Shown: positions 3,914 through 41,840, numbered from the stretch's first letter. The stretch: 64,000 nucleotides of DNA from Actinomycetota bacterium (GCA_016235065.1 JACRMB010000005.1:9524-73523); one strand, 5' to 3'. The notes: generated by a model from the letters alone, not told the origin. Numbers and translations are program-made.

Positions 3914-3990
<77 letters not shown>

Positions 3991-4015: not shown

Positions 4016-4546
4016 CTGGCAACCGCCGCCAATGCTTTAACCCTCATACGTCTCCTGGCGGTTCCCGCAATCGTCGTTCTGGTGCTCCGAGCTGATGGCG
4101 GCTCCAGCATGGCGGCAACGATAATCTTCGCCGCCGCAGCGCTGACTGATTTCCTCGATGGCCGTCTGGCCAGGGCTACTGGAACCGTCACCGAGTTCGG
4201 CCGGGTCTTCGATCCGTTTGTCGACAGGGTCTTCATCTGTGGCACAGTCCTGGCGCTTACCCTGGCAGGCCGCCTGCCCTGGCAGGGGGTCGCCCTGCTC
4301 GTAGGGCGGGATATTTTTATGATTCTTGGGTATAAGGTCCTGGGGACGCAGGAGATAAAGCTGCGGGTGACCTTTCTGGGAAAGACTTACACGGCTGTCT
4401 TGATGGCAGCGGTACTCATGTGCCTGGCGGATCTGGGTCCCTGGCTGATACTCTTCTGGATCGGGGTAGCCGGTTCTCTCGTAACCGGAGCAATGTATGC
4501 GGTCAAGGGACTGGCGAAATTGACCGAGGTCAGGTCGCAATCCTGA
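4016..4546 (+). CDS. pgsA: CDP-diacylglycerol--glycerol-3-phosphate 3-phosphatidyltransferase (CDP-alcohol phosphatidyltransferase family)
   Basis: The motif DGRLAR-x8-G-x3-D-x3-D is present and the protein is multi-TM. The ORF-track 5' extension runs through the tRNA. No ATG/GTG/TTG lies upstream of the conserved N-terminus, and CTG 4016 sits 5 nt after GGAGG. Confidence 0.8.
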   Translation: MATAANALTLIRLLAVPAIVVLVLRADGGSSMAATIIFAAAALTDFLDGRLARATGTVTEFGRVFDPFVDRVFICGTVLALTLAGRLPWQGVALLVGRDIFMILGYKVLGTQEIKLRVTFLGKTYTAVLMAAVLMCLADLGPWLILFWIGVAGSLVTGAMYAVKGLAKLTEVRSQS

Positions 4547-34653: not shown

Positions 34654-35946
34654 ATGCCCATGCCTCCCATCCTTCAGGTAGCTCTGGACTTTTTGGATCT
34701 GCCGCGGGCGCTCCAGGTCGCGGATGAAGCCCTGAAGGGCGGCGTCGACTGGATCGAGGCCGGCACGCCGCTGATCAAGAGTGAGGGTCTCGAGGCGGTC
34801 CGGCAGATGAAGCGGCGCTGGCCGGACGCGGTGATCGTCGCTGACCTCAAGACCATGGACGCCGGCCGCTTCGAGATGGAGTCGGCTGCGAAAGCCGGGG
34901 CACAGGTCGCCGGCGTTCTCGGGGCCGCTTCCGACGCTACTATCGCCGAGTGTATCGAAGTCGCTCGCAACTACGGCTTGCGGGTGATAGTCGACATGAT
35001 CGAAGTCGTTGACCCCGTGGAACGCGCCCGCCAGGTCGAGAAGATGGGCGCGGATTACGTGGGCATCCATACGGCCATCGACCAGCAGATGCAGGGAAAG
35101 GCCGATCTGGAACTCATCCGCAGGATCAAGGCAGCAGTGTCGATCCCCGTCTCTGTCGCGGGGGGTATAAATTCCGAAACAGCCGCCGATGCAGCCGCCG
35201 CCGGCGCCGATATCATCGTAGTCGGCGGAGCGATAATCAAAGCGGCAGACGCCGAGCTGGCCGCGCGCCAGATCAGGCAGGCGATCGATTCCCGGCGAGG
35301 TGTTGAAACGACCCTTTACAAGCGAGCGAGCGGCACTGATATCCTTCCCGTTTTAAGCCAGGTATCGACGGCCAATATCTCCGACGCGATGCACAGAAGC
35401 GGCGAGCTCACGGGATTGATGCCCGTATACAGTGGAATCAGGATGGCAGGCCCGGCATTCACAGTGCGGACGTTCCCCGGAGACTGGGCTAAACCGGTCG
35501 AAGCCATCGATCTTGCCCGGAAAGGCGATGTGATCGTGATCGACGCCGGCGGCGCCGGCCCTGCCGTCTGGGGTGAGCTGGCGACCCACAGCGCCCGCGA
35601 GCGGGGCATCGCCGGTGTGGTCATCTACGGAGCAGTGCGTGATACTCCAGAGATAAGAGAGCTGGAATTTCCGGTATTTGCTAGCATATTCACGCCCACT
35701 GCCGGCGAGCCAAAAGGATTCGGGGAAGTCGATGTGCCGGTAAACGTGTCCAGGGTGAAGATAAATCCTGGCGACTGGCTGGTCGGCGATGATGACGGCG
35801 TCGTCGTCATTCCGAAAGCAAAAGCCATCGAGGTGGCAAACCGGGCGATGGACGTTCTGGAGAGGGAAAACCGTCTACGGAAAGAGATCCAGGATGGCAG
35901 CACCCTGAGCCAGGTGGCCTACCTGCAGAAGTGGGAAAAGACCTAG
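34654..35946 (+). CDS. Fusion of 3-hexulose-6-phosphate synthase (OMPdecase-fold) and an RraA-like domain
   Basis: 430 aa. The N-terminal half has ILQVALDFLDL...IEAGTPLIK...VADLKTMDAG...GIHTAIDQQ. The C-terminal half has NISDAMHRSG...GPAFTV...GDVIVIDAGG...WGELAT...GVVIYGAVRD. Confidence 0.8.
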   Translation: MPMPPILQVALDFLDLPRALQVADEALKGGVDWIEAGTPLIKSEGLEAVRQMKRRWPDAVIVADLKTMDAGRFEMESAAKAGAQVAGVLGAASDATIAECIEVARNYGLRVIVDMIEVVDPVERARQVEKMGADYVGIHTAIDQQMQGKADLELIRRIKAAVSIPVSVAGGINSETAADAAAAGADIIVVGGAIIKAADAELAARQIRQAIDSRRGVETTLYKRASGTDILPVLSQVSTANISDAMHRSGELTGLMPVYSGIRMAGPAFTVRTFPGDWAKPVEAIDLARKGDVIVIDAGGAGPAVWGELATHSARERGIAGVVIYGAVRDTPEIRELEFPVFASIFTPTAGEPKGFGEVDVPVNVSRVKINPGDWLVGDDDGVVVIPKAKAIEVANRAMDVLERENRLRKEIQDGSTLSQVAYLQKWEKT

Positions 35947-36176
35947 TCCGAACTGTTCTTGATGCGGATCACTTTATGCAGCCTGGTCCGCACATCTCCG
36001 GGCATCTCCGGGGCGGGGATTTCCCGGTACATGGTCACCGTCCTCCTGAGAGTGTTGACCACGACGCGGCAGTTGTAGCAGTCCTTGAGATGGCCCTCGA
36101 TCTCGCGGCAGGTCTTTTCTGCTAGATCCTCATCGATATATTCAGAGAGCCCTTCGAGTATTTCCCGGCAATCCAT
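35943..36176 (-). CDS. Soluble zinc-binding (ZAS, RsrA/RshA-like) anti-sigma factor
   Basis: 77 aa with no TM segment. An N-terminal Cys precedes the H-x3-C-x2-C motif (HLKDCYNC). It lies directly downstream of the ECF sigma gene. Confidence 0.8.
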   Translation of the reverse strand: MDCREILEGLSEYIDEDLAEKTCREIEGHLKDCYNCRVVVNTLRRTVTMYREIPAPEMPGDVRTRLHKVIRIKNSSD

Positions 36177-36178
36177 GG

Positions 36179-36784
36179 CTAACCTGTCTCCCCTGTGAAG
36201 TAATCTGACAATCTGTTCCTGAGATACAGGCGTGCCCTGTGCAGTCGTGATTTCACCGCAGGGATAGAAAGATCAAGTACCTTTGCGACTTCCGCTGCGG
36301 GCATGCCTTCCACGTCCCTTAACACGAAGACGACCCGATATTTGTCGGGCAGCTCCGCAACAGCCTCGTCCATGACCTGCCGTGCCTCATCGTTAAGCAG
36401 CTTTTCCGCTGGACCACCTGACCAGTCGACCATGGATGTCTCCGAGTGGGCGGCATCCTTGATGGAATATACTTCATCCAGAAATTCCCCTTCGCTTTTC
36501 TCTCTCCTGCTCTTCTGGCGCAGTTTGGTCAGGGCGGCGTTGGCGGCGACCCTGTAAAGCCAGGTCGAAAAACTCGACCGGCTCTTGAAACCGTCAATAG
36601 ACCTGACGACGTTTAAAAAAGTATCCTGCAAAACGTCCTCTGCGTCTTCCTTGTTCCCCAGCATCCTGTAAGCGAGGCTGTAAACCCTGCTTTCATACCG
36701 GGACATAAGGGCTTCCAGGGCATCAGCGTTACCGTCCCTGATCTCATCTATCAGTTCATTGTCGGTGGGAACTGTATTCTCCAT
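36179..36784 (-). CDS. ECF-type RNA polymerase sigma factor (SigH/SigR-like context)
   Basis: 201 aa. Region 2 reads YSLAYRMLGNKEDAEDVLQDTFLNV...FSTWLYRVAAN. Region 4 reads VFVLRDVEGMPAAEVAKVLDLSIPAVKSRLHRAR. Confidence 0.88.
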   Translation of the reverse strand: MENTVPTDNELIDEIRDGNADALEALMSRYESRVYSLAYRMLGNKEDAEDVLQDTFLNVVRSIDGFKSRSSFSTWLYRVAANAALTKLRQKSRREKSEGEFLDEVYSIKDAAHSETSMVDWSGGPAEKLLNDEARQVMDEAVAELPDKYRVVFVLRDVEGMPAAEVAKVLDLSIPAVKSRLHRARLYLRNRLSDYFTGETG

Positions 36785-39235: not shown

Positions 39236-39313
39236 ATGACGCTGCCCCTGGTTGCTTCAATAGACTGTATTCATTATAGCGGCCTCAACCCGGAGAGCAA
39301 AAAACGCTCATGT

Positions 39314-39342
39314 TTCAAGGATGATCTCATAAGGTCGATATT
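39314..39342 (+). promoter_or_regulatory. Candidate promoter TTCAAG-N17-GATATT placing a TSS just 5' of the riboswitch
   Basis: TTCAAG lies at 39314-39319 and GATATT at 39337-39342. An alternative is TTGCTT-N17-TATAGC at 39252-39280. Confidence 0.3.
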
Positions 39343-39349
39343 TAGTGTA

Positions 39350-39432
39350 CAAGTGCGAAAAGGCAAACCCATCGCGAGGTGGGGGCGCAAAGCTAGGGGT
39401 CTCCTCCGGAGACAGCCCGGCCGCCGAAGCTC
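39350..39432 (+). promoter_or_regulatory. c-di-GMP-I (GEMM-I) riboswitch aptamer
   Basis: GGCAAACC lies at 39362-39369. A 6-bp stem CCCAUC/GGUGGG is capped by the GNRA loop GCGA. CGCAAAGC lies at 39386-39393, followed by a second hairpin GUCUCC-UCC-GGAGAC. The element order and spacing match the Vc2 aptamer. Confidence 0.8.
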
Positions 39433-39474
39433 TGTAAGCTGTTCTTTAATGAACAGCGTTGACGTGTTGCAGTC

Positions 39475-39516
39475 AGCTCATCTGCTCCGACATCACCGGG
39501 CGGTTGAGCTTTTTTT
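39475..39516 (+). terminator. Intrinsic terminator forming the riboswitch expression platform
   Basis: An imperfect ~13-bp stem (AGCTCATCTGCTCC ... GGGCGGTTGAGCT) is followed by a run of 7 T. It lies upstream of the 39584 ORF. Confidence 0.7.
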
Positions 39517-39583
39517 GTGTCCTCACCGGGTGCGCCAGGCGCAAGCTTGACAGCGACGTGGTTTGTCCATCAAACGGCAGGCG

Positions 39584-40003
39584 ATGATGGACACGGTAAA
39601 CAGAGAAAAGCAGAATTTCAGGATGATCATCCTGGCTCTCGCAGTTCTCGTTTGCGCCTGGTTGCTTCCCACAGGCGTAGGAATAGCGGCTTCGGCATCG
39701 AGCAGTATGAAAGTCACGCTTGTCGTCGAGGACGCGGTCGGTGTGAACTATGGCAGGTCGGCGCTTGACTCCGGCTCCGTGGGCAGGGCAGGTCAGGTCA
39801 TCACAAAGTTTGTCACTCGGACGGCATCGTCAAGGCTCGCTGGAATGGCAGTGGATGAAGCGAGAGACCCGCAAGTAGATGATAGCGGAGTTCCGTTTGG
39901 GTCCGGAACAGACACAGGCCCGGACGATGCCGTGTCGGGTGGCGTACTTGATAGAAGCGAATCAATGGAAAGCGAAGTTGTAGTCACAGTAAGCAGTCTG
40001 TAG
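39584..40003 (+). CDS. Small secreted protein of unknown function (riboswitch-controlled)
   Basis: The signal peptide is REKQNFRMIILALAVLVCAWLLPTGVGIAASA. The mature part is ~100 aa, Ser/Asp/Gly/Val-rich, with no recognisable domain. The start is uncertain (ATG 39584/39587 or TTG 39563). Confidence 0.6.
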   Translation: MMDTVNREKQNFRMIILALAVLVCAWLLPTGVGIAASASSSMKVTLVVEDAVGVNYGRSALDSGSVGRAGQVITKFVTRTASSRLAGMAVDEARDPQVDDSGVPFGSGTDTGPDDAVSGGVLDRSESMESEVVVTVSSL

Positions 40004-40301
40004 AAAAGCGTCCCTCGTCGGCTCCAAAACCGACATCAGCTTTGGCGGCATGTATCTTGCCCGAATCCCTCGCTGGGATGGATACAGCCGCCGAAGCTTT
40101 CTTCTCCGGAAAAGATTTGCCACTTCCCTGATTGAAGGAAACCAATAAGGCTATGTAGAAAAAGTTATCGCGGCATCCGGATTCCGTGCGGCCGCATCTT
40201 CGGGAACGTCATCCGTGGCAGTAATTTCTTTATTTTTGAGTCATGTTCCATGCTCAAAAAGGCCACGGCGGGTTCGGGTATCGCATCAGAACAGGAGATC
40301 A

Positions 40302-40757
40302 ATGGATATACAAAAGATGGTTGATGAGCGCATCGAGGAACTTCTTGCCAGGAAAAACATCTCTTATCCCACACCGGAAAATCAGGATGAAGTCCCAAGT
40401 GATGAGTTGTCTGATCTTGGCGATGTCATCGAGGAAGCAATGATGGAAGTCGCTGAACGAGTGCTTGCCATCTCCGACCGCGTTGCAGGTGATTTCGCCC
40501 GGATGGAAAAAGATATCCTCGATTCACGATTAGCAGTTCTTCAGAGCGCTGAGGCTGTTCTTGATATAGCTGTTTCACTAAGGCGCAAGGCGAAAGCGCT
40601 GACATCAGCCTCTGTGGAACCTGCCAGGAAGAGGACTGTCAGAGACGACGAGCTGCATCTCGTGGACGATATTTATGATCTTGAAGCCCTCGGCCTGCAG
40701 GACGGCCGAGCCAGTATGCACGATCATGGAGTCGCGTCCCTGTTCAGAAGGACCTGA
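40302..40757 (+). CDS. Hypothetical helical/coiled-coil protein
   Basis: 151 aa from ATG 40302, which follows AGGAGA. Its stop abuts the start of the GGDEF gene. Confidence 0.55.
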   Translation: MDIQKMVDERIEELLARKNISYPTPENQDEVPSDELSDLGDVIEEAMMEVAERVLAISDRVAGDFARMEKDILDSRLAVLQSAEAVLDIAVSLRRKAKALTSASVEPARKRTVRDDELHLVDDIYDLEALGLQDGRASMHDHGVASLFRRT

Positions 40758-41840
40758 TTGCCTGAAAGGCGGTTCATCCCTCATATGGATCAGGGCAAAC
40801 TGAACGAATTGAGAGAGTTTTCTGTTTCCGTCGCAGCTGAAGGCAGGAATGATGAATGCCGTCCAGCTTCTACGACAGGCTCTTATCCTCTGTTGACCCG
40901 GAAGGCTGCTGTCTCCCTCAAGAGACGTGAGACCCAGGTTATCAAAGGCTGGCTCAAGGAGGTCATCGACAGTCTGGGTCTGCCCTCCCTTCAGGCATTC
41001 CCGACAAGTGAGCTCGCGGCAGGATTCCCGGCTGTAATCGACGGCGTCGCCGAGGCTATCGCCGATCCGTCAGCTGCGCATTCGCGGCATAGAGAGGTAG
41101 CCGAGATCTCGGGCCTTCTGGCGCGGCTTCGCAAGGAAGATGCCAGCATCGAGAGGTTTGTGGACGACTACTCCCTGCTGAAAAGCCTGATGTTCGATGC
41201 GGCTGCGGCAGACTTGCGGCAATCTGACATGGCCGTTCTGAGTATCACCCGAAATCTCGAGGAAGGATTCAACACAGTCCTCAAGGAAGGCCTCAAGGCT
41301 TATGTTGAGCAGCACTCGTCAAGGCTCCAGCATCTTGCTGACACCGATGCTTTGACCGGCCTGTACAACGTGAGATACTTCCGCAGCCAGCTGCACAAGA
41401 ACCTGGAGATGTACAAGCGCTATCGGATCCCCTTCTCGCTTCTCATGCTCGATATGGATAACCTCAAACAACTCAATGACGCTCGCGGCCACCAGTCAGG
41501 CGATCTTGCACTGAAGCATCTGTCGGCGATCATGGCTGACGAGAAGCGTGAGACTGATATCGCTGTGAGATATGGCGGCGACGAGTTCTTCCTGGTGTTG
41601 CCGGGGACCGGAGCCGCTGATGGCGAGCGACTGGCTTACCGTATCGTCCGCCGTGTTCGGCAGCTCAACATCCACTCGGGCGGCAGGGATATCGCCGGTG
41701 TCTCAATCGGAGTCGTATCCTGTCCGGACAACGGTTCTGACGTCGGAACCCTGAGAGCGAAAGCTGATCGGGCGCTCTACCTCGCCAAAGCGATAGGCGG
41801 CGCTTCGGTAGCCAGCTTTCAGGAATTCCACGAATCCTGA
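40758..41840 (+). CDS. Diguanylate cyclase (GGDEF) with an uncharacterised N-terminal sensor region
   Basis: 360 aa with DALTGLYNVRYF and a RETD I-site located 5 aa before RYGGDEFFLVL. The start is TTG 40758 directly after the upstream TGA, or ATG 40785. Confidence 0.88.
   Translation: MPERRFIPHMDQGKLNELREFSVSVAAEGRNDECRPASTTGSYPLLTRKAAVSLKRRETQVIKGWLKEVIDSLGLPSLQAFPTSELAAGFPAVIDGVAEAIADPSAAHSRHREVAEISGLLARLRKEDASIERFVDDYSLLKSLMFDAAAADLRQSDMAVLSITRNLEEGFNTVLKEGLKAYVEQHSSRLQHLADTDALTGLYNVRYFRSQLHKNLEMYKRYRIPFSLLMLDMDNLKQLNDARGHQSGDLALKHLSAIMADEKRETDIAVRYGGDEFFLVLPGTGAADGERLAYRIVRRVRQLNIHSGGRDIAGVSIGVVSCPDNGSDVGTLRAKADRALYLAKAIGGASVASFQEFHES

Follow-up and report, generated by a model that had tools for sequence, protein, structure and literature searches.

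The locus considered here raises two questions: which signal is read by an RNA element that lies ahead of the gene for a small exported protein, and in which direction the reading of that signal would move expression. It is part of a 64,000-nucleotide (nt) stretch of DNA from an Actinomycetota bacterium (GCA_016235065.1, JACRMB010000005.1:9524-73523), referred to below as the window, in which positions 39350-40003 hold a riboswitch-like leader, an intrinsic terminator and an open reading frame (ORF). Coordinates are counted from the first nucleotide of the window and refer to the + strand unless stated otherwise. An earlier note on this DNA had read the segment as a class I riboswitch for cyclic di-guanosine monophosphate (c-di-GMP) that turns expression off. 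Our analysis identifies a GEMM-I (class I) aptamer with a canonical ligand pocket, conserved together with its terminator and its ORF, and c-di-GMP is the ligand to be expected. We put at about 60% the probability that the element is an OFF switch acting on both termination and translation.

A scan of the whole 64-kb window with Rfam cmscan at the curated gathering thresholds detected a single riboswitch, at 39354-39429, where the family RF03167 ('c-di-GMP-I-GGC', clan CL00126) aligns over its full length (1-80 of 80) with 61.8 bits against a cut-off of 59 (E = 3.5e-12). A second CL00126 family likewise scores above its own cut-off here, below RF03167. A clan match above a curated cut-off supports the GEMM-I class proposed earlier, the top model being RF03167 and not RF01051. 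A permissive scan of 39250-39650 (E <= 10) returned chance matches to small nucleolar RNAs only, and c-di-GMP-II (RF01786), which had been suggested as a negative control, gave no match even at that threshold. The motifs that had been quoted are present, AAAAGGCAAACC-CAUC-GCGA-GGUG-GGGGCGCAAAGC at 39358-39393 and a second GC hairpin, GUCUCC-UCC-GGAGAC, at 39399-39413. The RNA has a three-helix junction composed of P1 (39356-57:39425-26), P2 (CCCAUC-GCGA-GGUGGG, 39368-73:39378-83), which is capped by the GNRA loop GCGA, and P3 (39392-39404:39408-39421), with the equivalents of the G21-C46 and C22-G45 pairs at 39363-64:39387-88. Apart from alignment noise in P1, these helices are 100% paired in the orthologues.

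The identity of the ligand turns on a few nucleotides of the core. In the cmscan alignment the pocket consists of G39362, A39389 and C39424, the equivalents of G20, A47 and C92 in the Vc2 aptamer. They occupy model position 10 (the G before the G-C and C-G pairs), position 37 (the unpaired A after them) and position 75 (the unpaired C before P1), on the conversion of Vc2 numbers assumed here. The interhelical Watson-Crick pair C44-G83 is represented by C39386 (in GGGGC-GC) and the bulged G39415 (in ACAG-CC), both invariant in the alignment. In Vc2, c-di-GMP is contacted by G20, A47 and C92, and the C44-G83 pair has been described as universal in GEMM RNAs (PMC4744006). The consensus of RF03167, ACGCGAAG, which reads ACGC-G-AAGC, has a conserved G at model position 37, where the window (A39389) and all 12 aligned orthologues have A, not G. 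We take 'GGC' to stand for positions 20/47/92, and the model consensus agrees with this usage. Since the variant-defining G47 is absent here and in all orthologues, the RF03167 label is, on this comparison, an artefact, and 'class I, c-di-GMP' stays the right reading; RF03167 probably scores highest through shared periphery, that is, through a short P3. The canonical G20/A47/C92 pocket thus makes c-di-GMP the expected ligand. An A at position 20 defines the subtype that binds cyclic AMP-GMP (c-AMP-GMP), and the G previously proposed for this position is borne out by G39362 and by a G in all orthologues, which argues against that subtype. The c-AMP-GMP (GEMM-Ib) riboswitch exists as a variant class of its own (PMC7266159). 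A practical warning follows from the labelling: an Rfam variant model may outscore its parent on sequences that lack the defining substitution, and the pocket nucleotides behind automatic labels should be checked.

The aptamer belongs to a leader that recurs with its gene. Aptamer, terminator and ORF are found together wherever the sequence of a related locus reaches far enough 5', which is so for about 25 loci from Thermoleophilia, Gaiellales and 'Actinomycetes' metagenome-assembled genomes (MAGs); the earlier note had asked whether homologues elsewhere carry such leaders, and this leader stands ahead of each homologue whose upstream DNA is long enough to show it. RF03167 matches 12 of the orthologous loci, at 61-71 bits, and the aptamer core is nearly invariant. 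When a DNA pattern for the aptamer was scanned across species-representative genomes, 15 loci were recovered (Thermoleophilia, Gaiellales and 'Actinomycetes bacterium' MAGs), with the small protein downstream in 12, a contig end cutting off one and a different gene in the other two; a protein-pattern scan of genome contigs gave no matches. In a 15-sequence alignment the proposed leader structure is 93.3% paired, compared with 33-52% in slid controls, eight pairs are changed on both sides, and none of 500 shuffles matches the covariation score. Gene order is also kept. On the contigs that encode 14 of the proteins it runs L,D-transpeptidase (-), small protein (+), a hypothetical protein of about 150 amino acids (aa) (+), GGDEF protein (+) and adenosine kinase (-).

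Downstream of the aptamer, folding and comparison place an intrinsic terminator at 39475-39516. Its interrupted 13-bp stem is made of 6+4+3 pairs (39475-39480:39505-39510, 39482-39485:39500-39503 and 39487-39489:39497-39499), with one U.U mismatch (39481:39504), one bulged U and the loop ACAUCAC (39490-39496), and is followed by U7 (T run, 39510-39516). The fold has an energy of -20.4 kcal/mol (z = -2.9; 0 of 200 shuffles fold as well) and is present in all orthologues with compensatory changes: loci L015, L017 and L018 have U-A in place of C-G at 39482:39503, and in some leaders A-U or U-G replaces the U.U mismatch. The hairpin with seven T residues described earlier is thus conserved as a structure, and termination at this site is predicted. 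A simple consensus terminator scan found nothing at 39475-39516 because the stem is interrupted by a 1-nt mismatch and a bulge. The linker between aptamer and terminator contains a conserved hairpin, H2 (GCUGUUC-UUUAAU-GAACAGC, 39438-39457; 39438-44:39451-57), in which 92.9% of alignment cells are paired and two pairs show double changes. Outside the helices, two conserved blocks of the leader are unassigned: UUGACGUGUU at 39459-39468, which about 10 of 14 leaders share, and GCGAC at 39553-39557, almost invariant (GCGAG in L017) and partly complementary to the first block (8 bp including three G.U pairs in the window).

Conservation continues beyond the terminator, where a covarying hairpin, UGUCCAUCA:UGAUGGACA (39564-39593; 39564-72:39585-93), encloses the start of the gene. 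An AGG resembling a Shine-Dalgarno (SD) sequence (39579-81) lies in its loop and both candidate AUGs (39584 and 39587) lie in its 3' arm. It is 98.5% paired among the orthologues, and at four pairs both sides have changed in a compensatory way, as in UGCCCAUUG:CAAUGGGCA and GUUCAUUG:CAAUGAAC. Two further segments of this region are complementary to strands of the aptamer core. The first, UUUUGUGUCCUCACC (39513-39527), begins within the U tract and is complementary over 15 nt to GGUGGGGGCGCAAAG (39378-39392), which comprises the 3' strand of P2, C44, G45-C46 and A47; the pairing is incompatible with the folded aptamer. It is the sole inter-segment duplex that stands above shuffles (-24.4 kcal/mol, z = -2.9), and its core of 10 pairs is kept in all orthologues, with 39385:39520 appearing as G.U, G-C or A-U. 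The same segment can alternatively pair with GGACACGG at the start codon. The second, GGUUUGUC (39560-39567), shares nucleotides with the 5' arm of the start hairpin and is complementary to GGCAAACC of the aptamer (39362-39369); 8 bp are possible in every orthologue, and GGUUUG is invariant save in L029 (AGUUUG) while the adjacent hairpin covaries. Both long-range complementarities are about 96% paired or more in the orthologues, against 42-60% in slid controls. We regard these pairings as likely to be real, with a putative functional role.

These elements can be combined into a switch that would act twice. With c-di-GMP bound, the aptamer would retain its core strands (GGCAAACC, and GGUGGGGGCGCAAAG including A47) together with the 3' strand of P1; the terminator at 39475-39516 would then form and most transcripts would stop near 39514-39517, and in transcripts that read through, the hairpin at 39564-39593 would bury the start codon. 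With no c-di-GMP the aptamer would be unlocked, so that the P1 tail GAAGCUC (39426-39432) could pair with the terminator base GAGCUUU (39506-39512), and in the full-length ligand-free RNA the core strands could pair with 39513-39527 and 39560-39567, loosening the start hairpin and freeing the AUG. The net result would be an OFF switch at two levels, acting on a small exported protein whose orphan family belongs to Thermoleophilia. We favour this direction because the complementarities to the core strands are conserved, because the GAAGCUC:GAGCUUU pairing is kept, because equilibrium folding shows some bias towards OFF, and because there is precedent in Clostridioides difficile.

In the ligand-free minimum-energy fold of the window, pairing of GAAGCUC (39426-32) with GAGCUUU (39506-12) removes the base of the terminator, and enforcing the aptamer raises the pair probabilities of the terminator base from about 0.44-0.7 to 0.96-1.0, the values varying with the 3' end that is modelled. 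In 13 of 14 leaders, 5-7 bp of this pairing, GAAGCU(C):(G)AGCUUU, are retained. When 19 leaders were folded at equilibrium with and without an enforced aptamer, the terminator-base probability rose in about 8, in some of them by a few hundredths, showed a clear fall in L003 and L030 and a slight one in L001, and barely changed in the remaining 8 or so; the modelled bias towards OFF is weak and inconsistent. The earlier note had envisaged a different antiterminator, between the 3' strand of the aptamer and the 3' arm of the terminator. That complementarity exists (39414-39425:39499-39510, -19.6 kcal/mol), but it does not rise above shuffles (z = -1.7) and is not conserved: G-to-A changes in the terminator 3' arm of L006, L015, L017 and the L003 group preserve the terminator yet break the proposed pairing, which we have set aside. 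Other candidates, in which the 3' strand of P2 or the 5' arm of H2 pairs with the 5' arm of the terminator, were rejected as weak, as having z > -1.1, or as not conserved.

Several considerations weigh against a c-di-GMP OFF switch of this design. No antiterminator that we examined is both strong and conserved, and the terminator probability exceeds 0.9 in most orthologues with or without the enforced aptamer. The partners of the long-range pairings lie 3' of the U tract and cannot affect the termination decision itself. Covariation in the long-range helices is not significant (172/500 shuffles for the pairing with 39513-39527) because the aptamer side is invariant, and what speaks for the helices is conserved complementarity to an invariant G-rich strand, which tolerates C and U changes in its partner. 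As for the class, RF01051's own score is hidden by clan competition. Finally, a secreted and possibly matrix-type protein would more often be expected to be switched ON by c-di-GMP.

The alternative that best survives takes up this last point. The same aptamer with the same ligand could form an ON switch, the exported protein being made at high c-di-GMP: the ligand-bound aptamer would free a strand such as AGCUG (39437-39441, in H2) to pair with CAGCU (39474-39478) at the base of the terminator 5' arm, so that transcription continues. Adhesins and matrix proteins are usually induced by c-di-GMP, and class I includes some ON switches, such as Vc1 and Bc2. The terminator forms in the ligand-free ensemble of most orthologues, as the default state of an ON switch should; the AGCUG:CAGCU pairing exists, reaching 7 bp in L003-type leaders; and those leaders in which enforcing the aptamer lowers the terminator probability, L003 and L030 clearly and L001 slightly, move as an ON switch would. 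However, this candidate antiterminator has 4-7 bp only (-6.5 kcal/mol, z = -0.4) and shifts register in L015, about 8 leaders move the opposite way in the equilibrium model, and the complementarity of the aptamer core to 39513-39527 is left without a role. We consider an ON switch a serious rival, though a less probable one, and retain the OFF switch as the preferred reading.

It is much less probable that the main product is the terminated RNA itself, of about 165 nt (near 39349-39516), serving as a c-di-GMP sponge or as a trans-acting small RNA, with control of the ORF secondary. The leader (39340-39600) is better conserved than the coding sequence (39587-40003), with a mean column identity of 71-80% against 29-40% for the protein in distant orthologues, and the terminator is strong in nearly all of them; however, the same ORF family always follows the leader, conservation runs past the terminator to the start codon, as cis control predicts, and no target of such an RNA has been identified. 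The least probable alternative is that the RNA is a true c-di-GMP-I-GGC variant sensing a different, still unidentified signalling molecule. RF03167 is the top family in the window and in all orthologues (61-71 bits against the cut-off of 59), but the G that names the variant is an A at the A47-equivalent of every one of them, leaving the pocket canonical, and the higher score probably comes from shared peripheral architecture (the short P3).

The gene placed under this control would encode a protein of 138 or 139 aa, ending at 40003. Its open frame extends over 39563-40003, and comparison of orthologues identifies ATG 39587 (or 39584) as the initiation codon, 5 nt downstream of the AGG. The ORF had been reported as carrying MKVTLVV...VVVTVSSL, which is what we find, and its coding nature is apparent from in-frame insertions and deletions, retention of VVVTVSSL and more differences at third than at first and second codon positions. 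The protein has a positive N-terminus, a hydrophobic segment of about 23 residues and an ASA-S-like site, followed by a conserved block of about 55 aa (MKVTLxVxDAVGVNYG...GQVITEFVTRTASSRL), a linker that varies and is sometimes deleted, and, at the C-terminus, the conserved strand VVVTVSSL. The signal peptide claimed before is supported in so far as a hydrophobic N-terminal signal is present; it may be a membrane anchor rather than a cleaved peptide (at ASA-S), and the protein would accordingly be either exported or membrane-anchored. A database of 5.8 billion sequences yielded 13 relatives, all named 'hypothetical protein [Thermoleophilia bacterium]', and when 1.84 billion cluster representatives were searched with a profile, 39 matched; the protein is a member of a tiny orphan family. 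Profile searches of Pfam, NCBIfam and the PDB with the small protein found no relative, in agreement with the earlier view that it has no recognisable domain, and AlphaFold2 failed to model the protein, with a predicted local distance difference test score (pLDDT) of 46 from 13 sequences and 51 from 27, and was confident only for the N-terminal helix. An orphan family of exported proteins tied to c-di-GMP signalling offers a handle on its function. We advance only tentatively the broader proposal that the locus represents an undescribed two-level design, in which the ligand-free mRNA refolds through 39362-39369:39560-39567 and 39378-39392:39513-39527 and so opens the start hairpin, and that its product founds a new c-di-GMP-controlled extracellular family of Thermoleophilia, perhaps a self-assembling beta-strand protein.

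How far does the regulated unit extend? On its 5' side, promoter-like elements can be read from the sequence, a -35 element TTCAAG (39314-39319) and a -10 element GATATT (39337-39342) separated by a 17-nt spacer. The 'CCGATAnnTA' and 'TCAAG' of this region are kept in orthologous leaders; a consensus promoter scan made no call at 39314-39342. The elements would imply a transcription start near 39349, about 5 nt 5' of the aptamer. After the stop codon a structured element occupies 40017-40105, with a hairpin (40017-21:40030-34), an 18-bp stem (40038-40056:40081-40098) and a U-rich tail (40098-40105). Its fold (-46.7 kcal/mol, z = -4.3) is conserved with compensatory changes, the base of the stem (GGCGG...CCGCC) being found also in L014, L015, L018 and L019, and it is probably the terminator or stabiliser of the small-ORF transcript. 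The 18-bp stem encloses a loop, UUGCCCGA, that is invariant in close relatives, together with an inner hairpin, and its 3' strand, ACAGCCGCCGAAGCU, resembles the 3' end of the aptamer. A second aptamer was considered for 40017-40105 and rejected: there is no Rfam match, and distant orthologues do not share the internal loop.

Beyond this structure, a second promoter-like motif, TTGAAG-18 nt-TAGAAA (40132-40161), has an invariant core, AAGGAAAC-N12-GTAGAAA, which might be a site for an alternative sigma factor or a regulator; the motif occurs only where the next gene (gene 2) is present and is followed by a conserved 5' untranslated region of about 130 nt. Gene 2 (40302-40757; ATG 40302, SD AGGAG) encodes an acidic, domain-less protein of 151 aa, and a GGDEF diguanylate cyclase gene abuts it (40758-41840); the cyclase has its GGDEF motif intact and carries an RxxD I-site (RETD). 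The two genes look like a separate transcription unit beside the c-di-GMP-sensing one. In L017 (3001-3450) and L018 (102-623) both are missing and a convergent adenosine-kinase gene directly follows the small ORF, the riboswitch and ORF being kept. Given the conserved 3' hairpin, the separate promoter-like motif and these loci that lack both genes, control by the riboswitch is most likely confined to the small ORF, as a monocistronic unit, and is unlikely to reach the GGDEF gene.

Some further observations concern the aptamer elsewhere and the surroundings of the locus. The same aptamer subtype (CCCAUCGYGAGGUGGGG), with a canonical pocket, stands before a different gene in two unclassified MAGs, at L020 1585-1625 and in L031 (core at 4185, + orientation). 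The gene there encodes a lipoprotein of about 320 aa (MK..LxGC) with no Pfam domain; these leaders have no terminator, carry a GGAGG SD sequence, and contain downstream CGCCCUCAUC or GCGCCCUACC, complementary to the 3' strand of P2 at -19 kcal/mol. The MAG DBS2-1.bin123 holds two interior copies of aptamer and small protein on separate contigs (L030 and L032), either paralogues or the contribution of two co-binned strains. A few genes upstream of the riboswitch, on the - strand at 35943-36784, a pair encoding an extracytoplasmic function (ECF) sigma factor and a zf-HC2 anti-sigma factor lies in conserved synteny, along with genes for a Zn-ribbon protein, a ferredoxin, a thioredoxin and the L,D-transpeptidase. 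The other Rfam match in the window is a tRNA gene (3914-3987, RF00005, 66.1 bits), unrelated to the riboswitch.

These results put uncultured Thermoleophilia and Gaiellales among the bacteria with a c-di-GMP-I riboswitch; a limited keyword search of the literature found no description of GEMM riboswitches in Thermoleophilia or Gaiellales. The conserved long platform makes the leader a tractable candidate for combined control of transcription and translation. Of moderate interest are the mislabelling by a variant model, an unusually conserved long platform with complementarity that would disrupt the aptamer, and the orphan protein family.

Comparison with known systems defines what is shared and what is particular to this locus. 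As in Vc2 and RF01051, there are three helices in the order GGCAAACC ... GNRA-capped P2 ... CGCAAAGC ... P3 ... GCC-P1, and the G20/A47/C92 contacts and C44-G83 pair are the same by alignment (PMC4744006). Unlike Vc2, P3 is short (about 12 pairs with a 3-nt loop) and lacks an obvious tetraloop-receptor motif, most orthologues have G at position 43 where the consensus has A, and the host belongs to an uncultured Thermoleophilia lineage. The RF03167 variant is alike in overall length and in its short P3 and differs in position 47, where the window and orthologues have A, not G. In C. difficile, class I c-di-GMP riboswitches have been described as switching transcription OFF, and several precede small domain-less proteins (PMC11477304); in these riboswitches, for example Cd1 upstream of flgB, an aptamer is likewise followed by an intrinsic terminator. 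The present leader comes from another phylum and adds a conserved hairpin over the start codon and segments complementary at long range to the aptamer core, and its direction is one that we infer. The Bc1 riboswitch of Bacillus thuringiensis has two tandem terminators and 'incoherent' dual regulation of transcription and translation, with no in vivo response to c-di-GMP (PMC11218506). The leader described here resembles Bc1 in its long platform, about 155 nt from aptamer to start codon, and in combining a terminator with elements that could affect translation; it differs in having one terminator and one start-codon hairpin, and in being known from its sequence. We conclude that the locus adds one more example to a well-known type of regulator and does not represent a new one; it lies in an uncultured actinobacterial lineage, ahead of an orphan exported protein.

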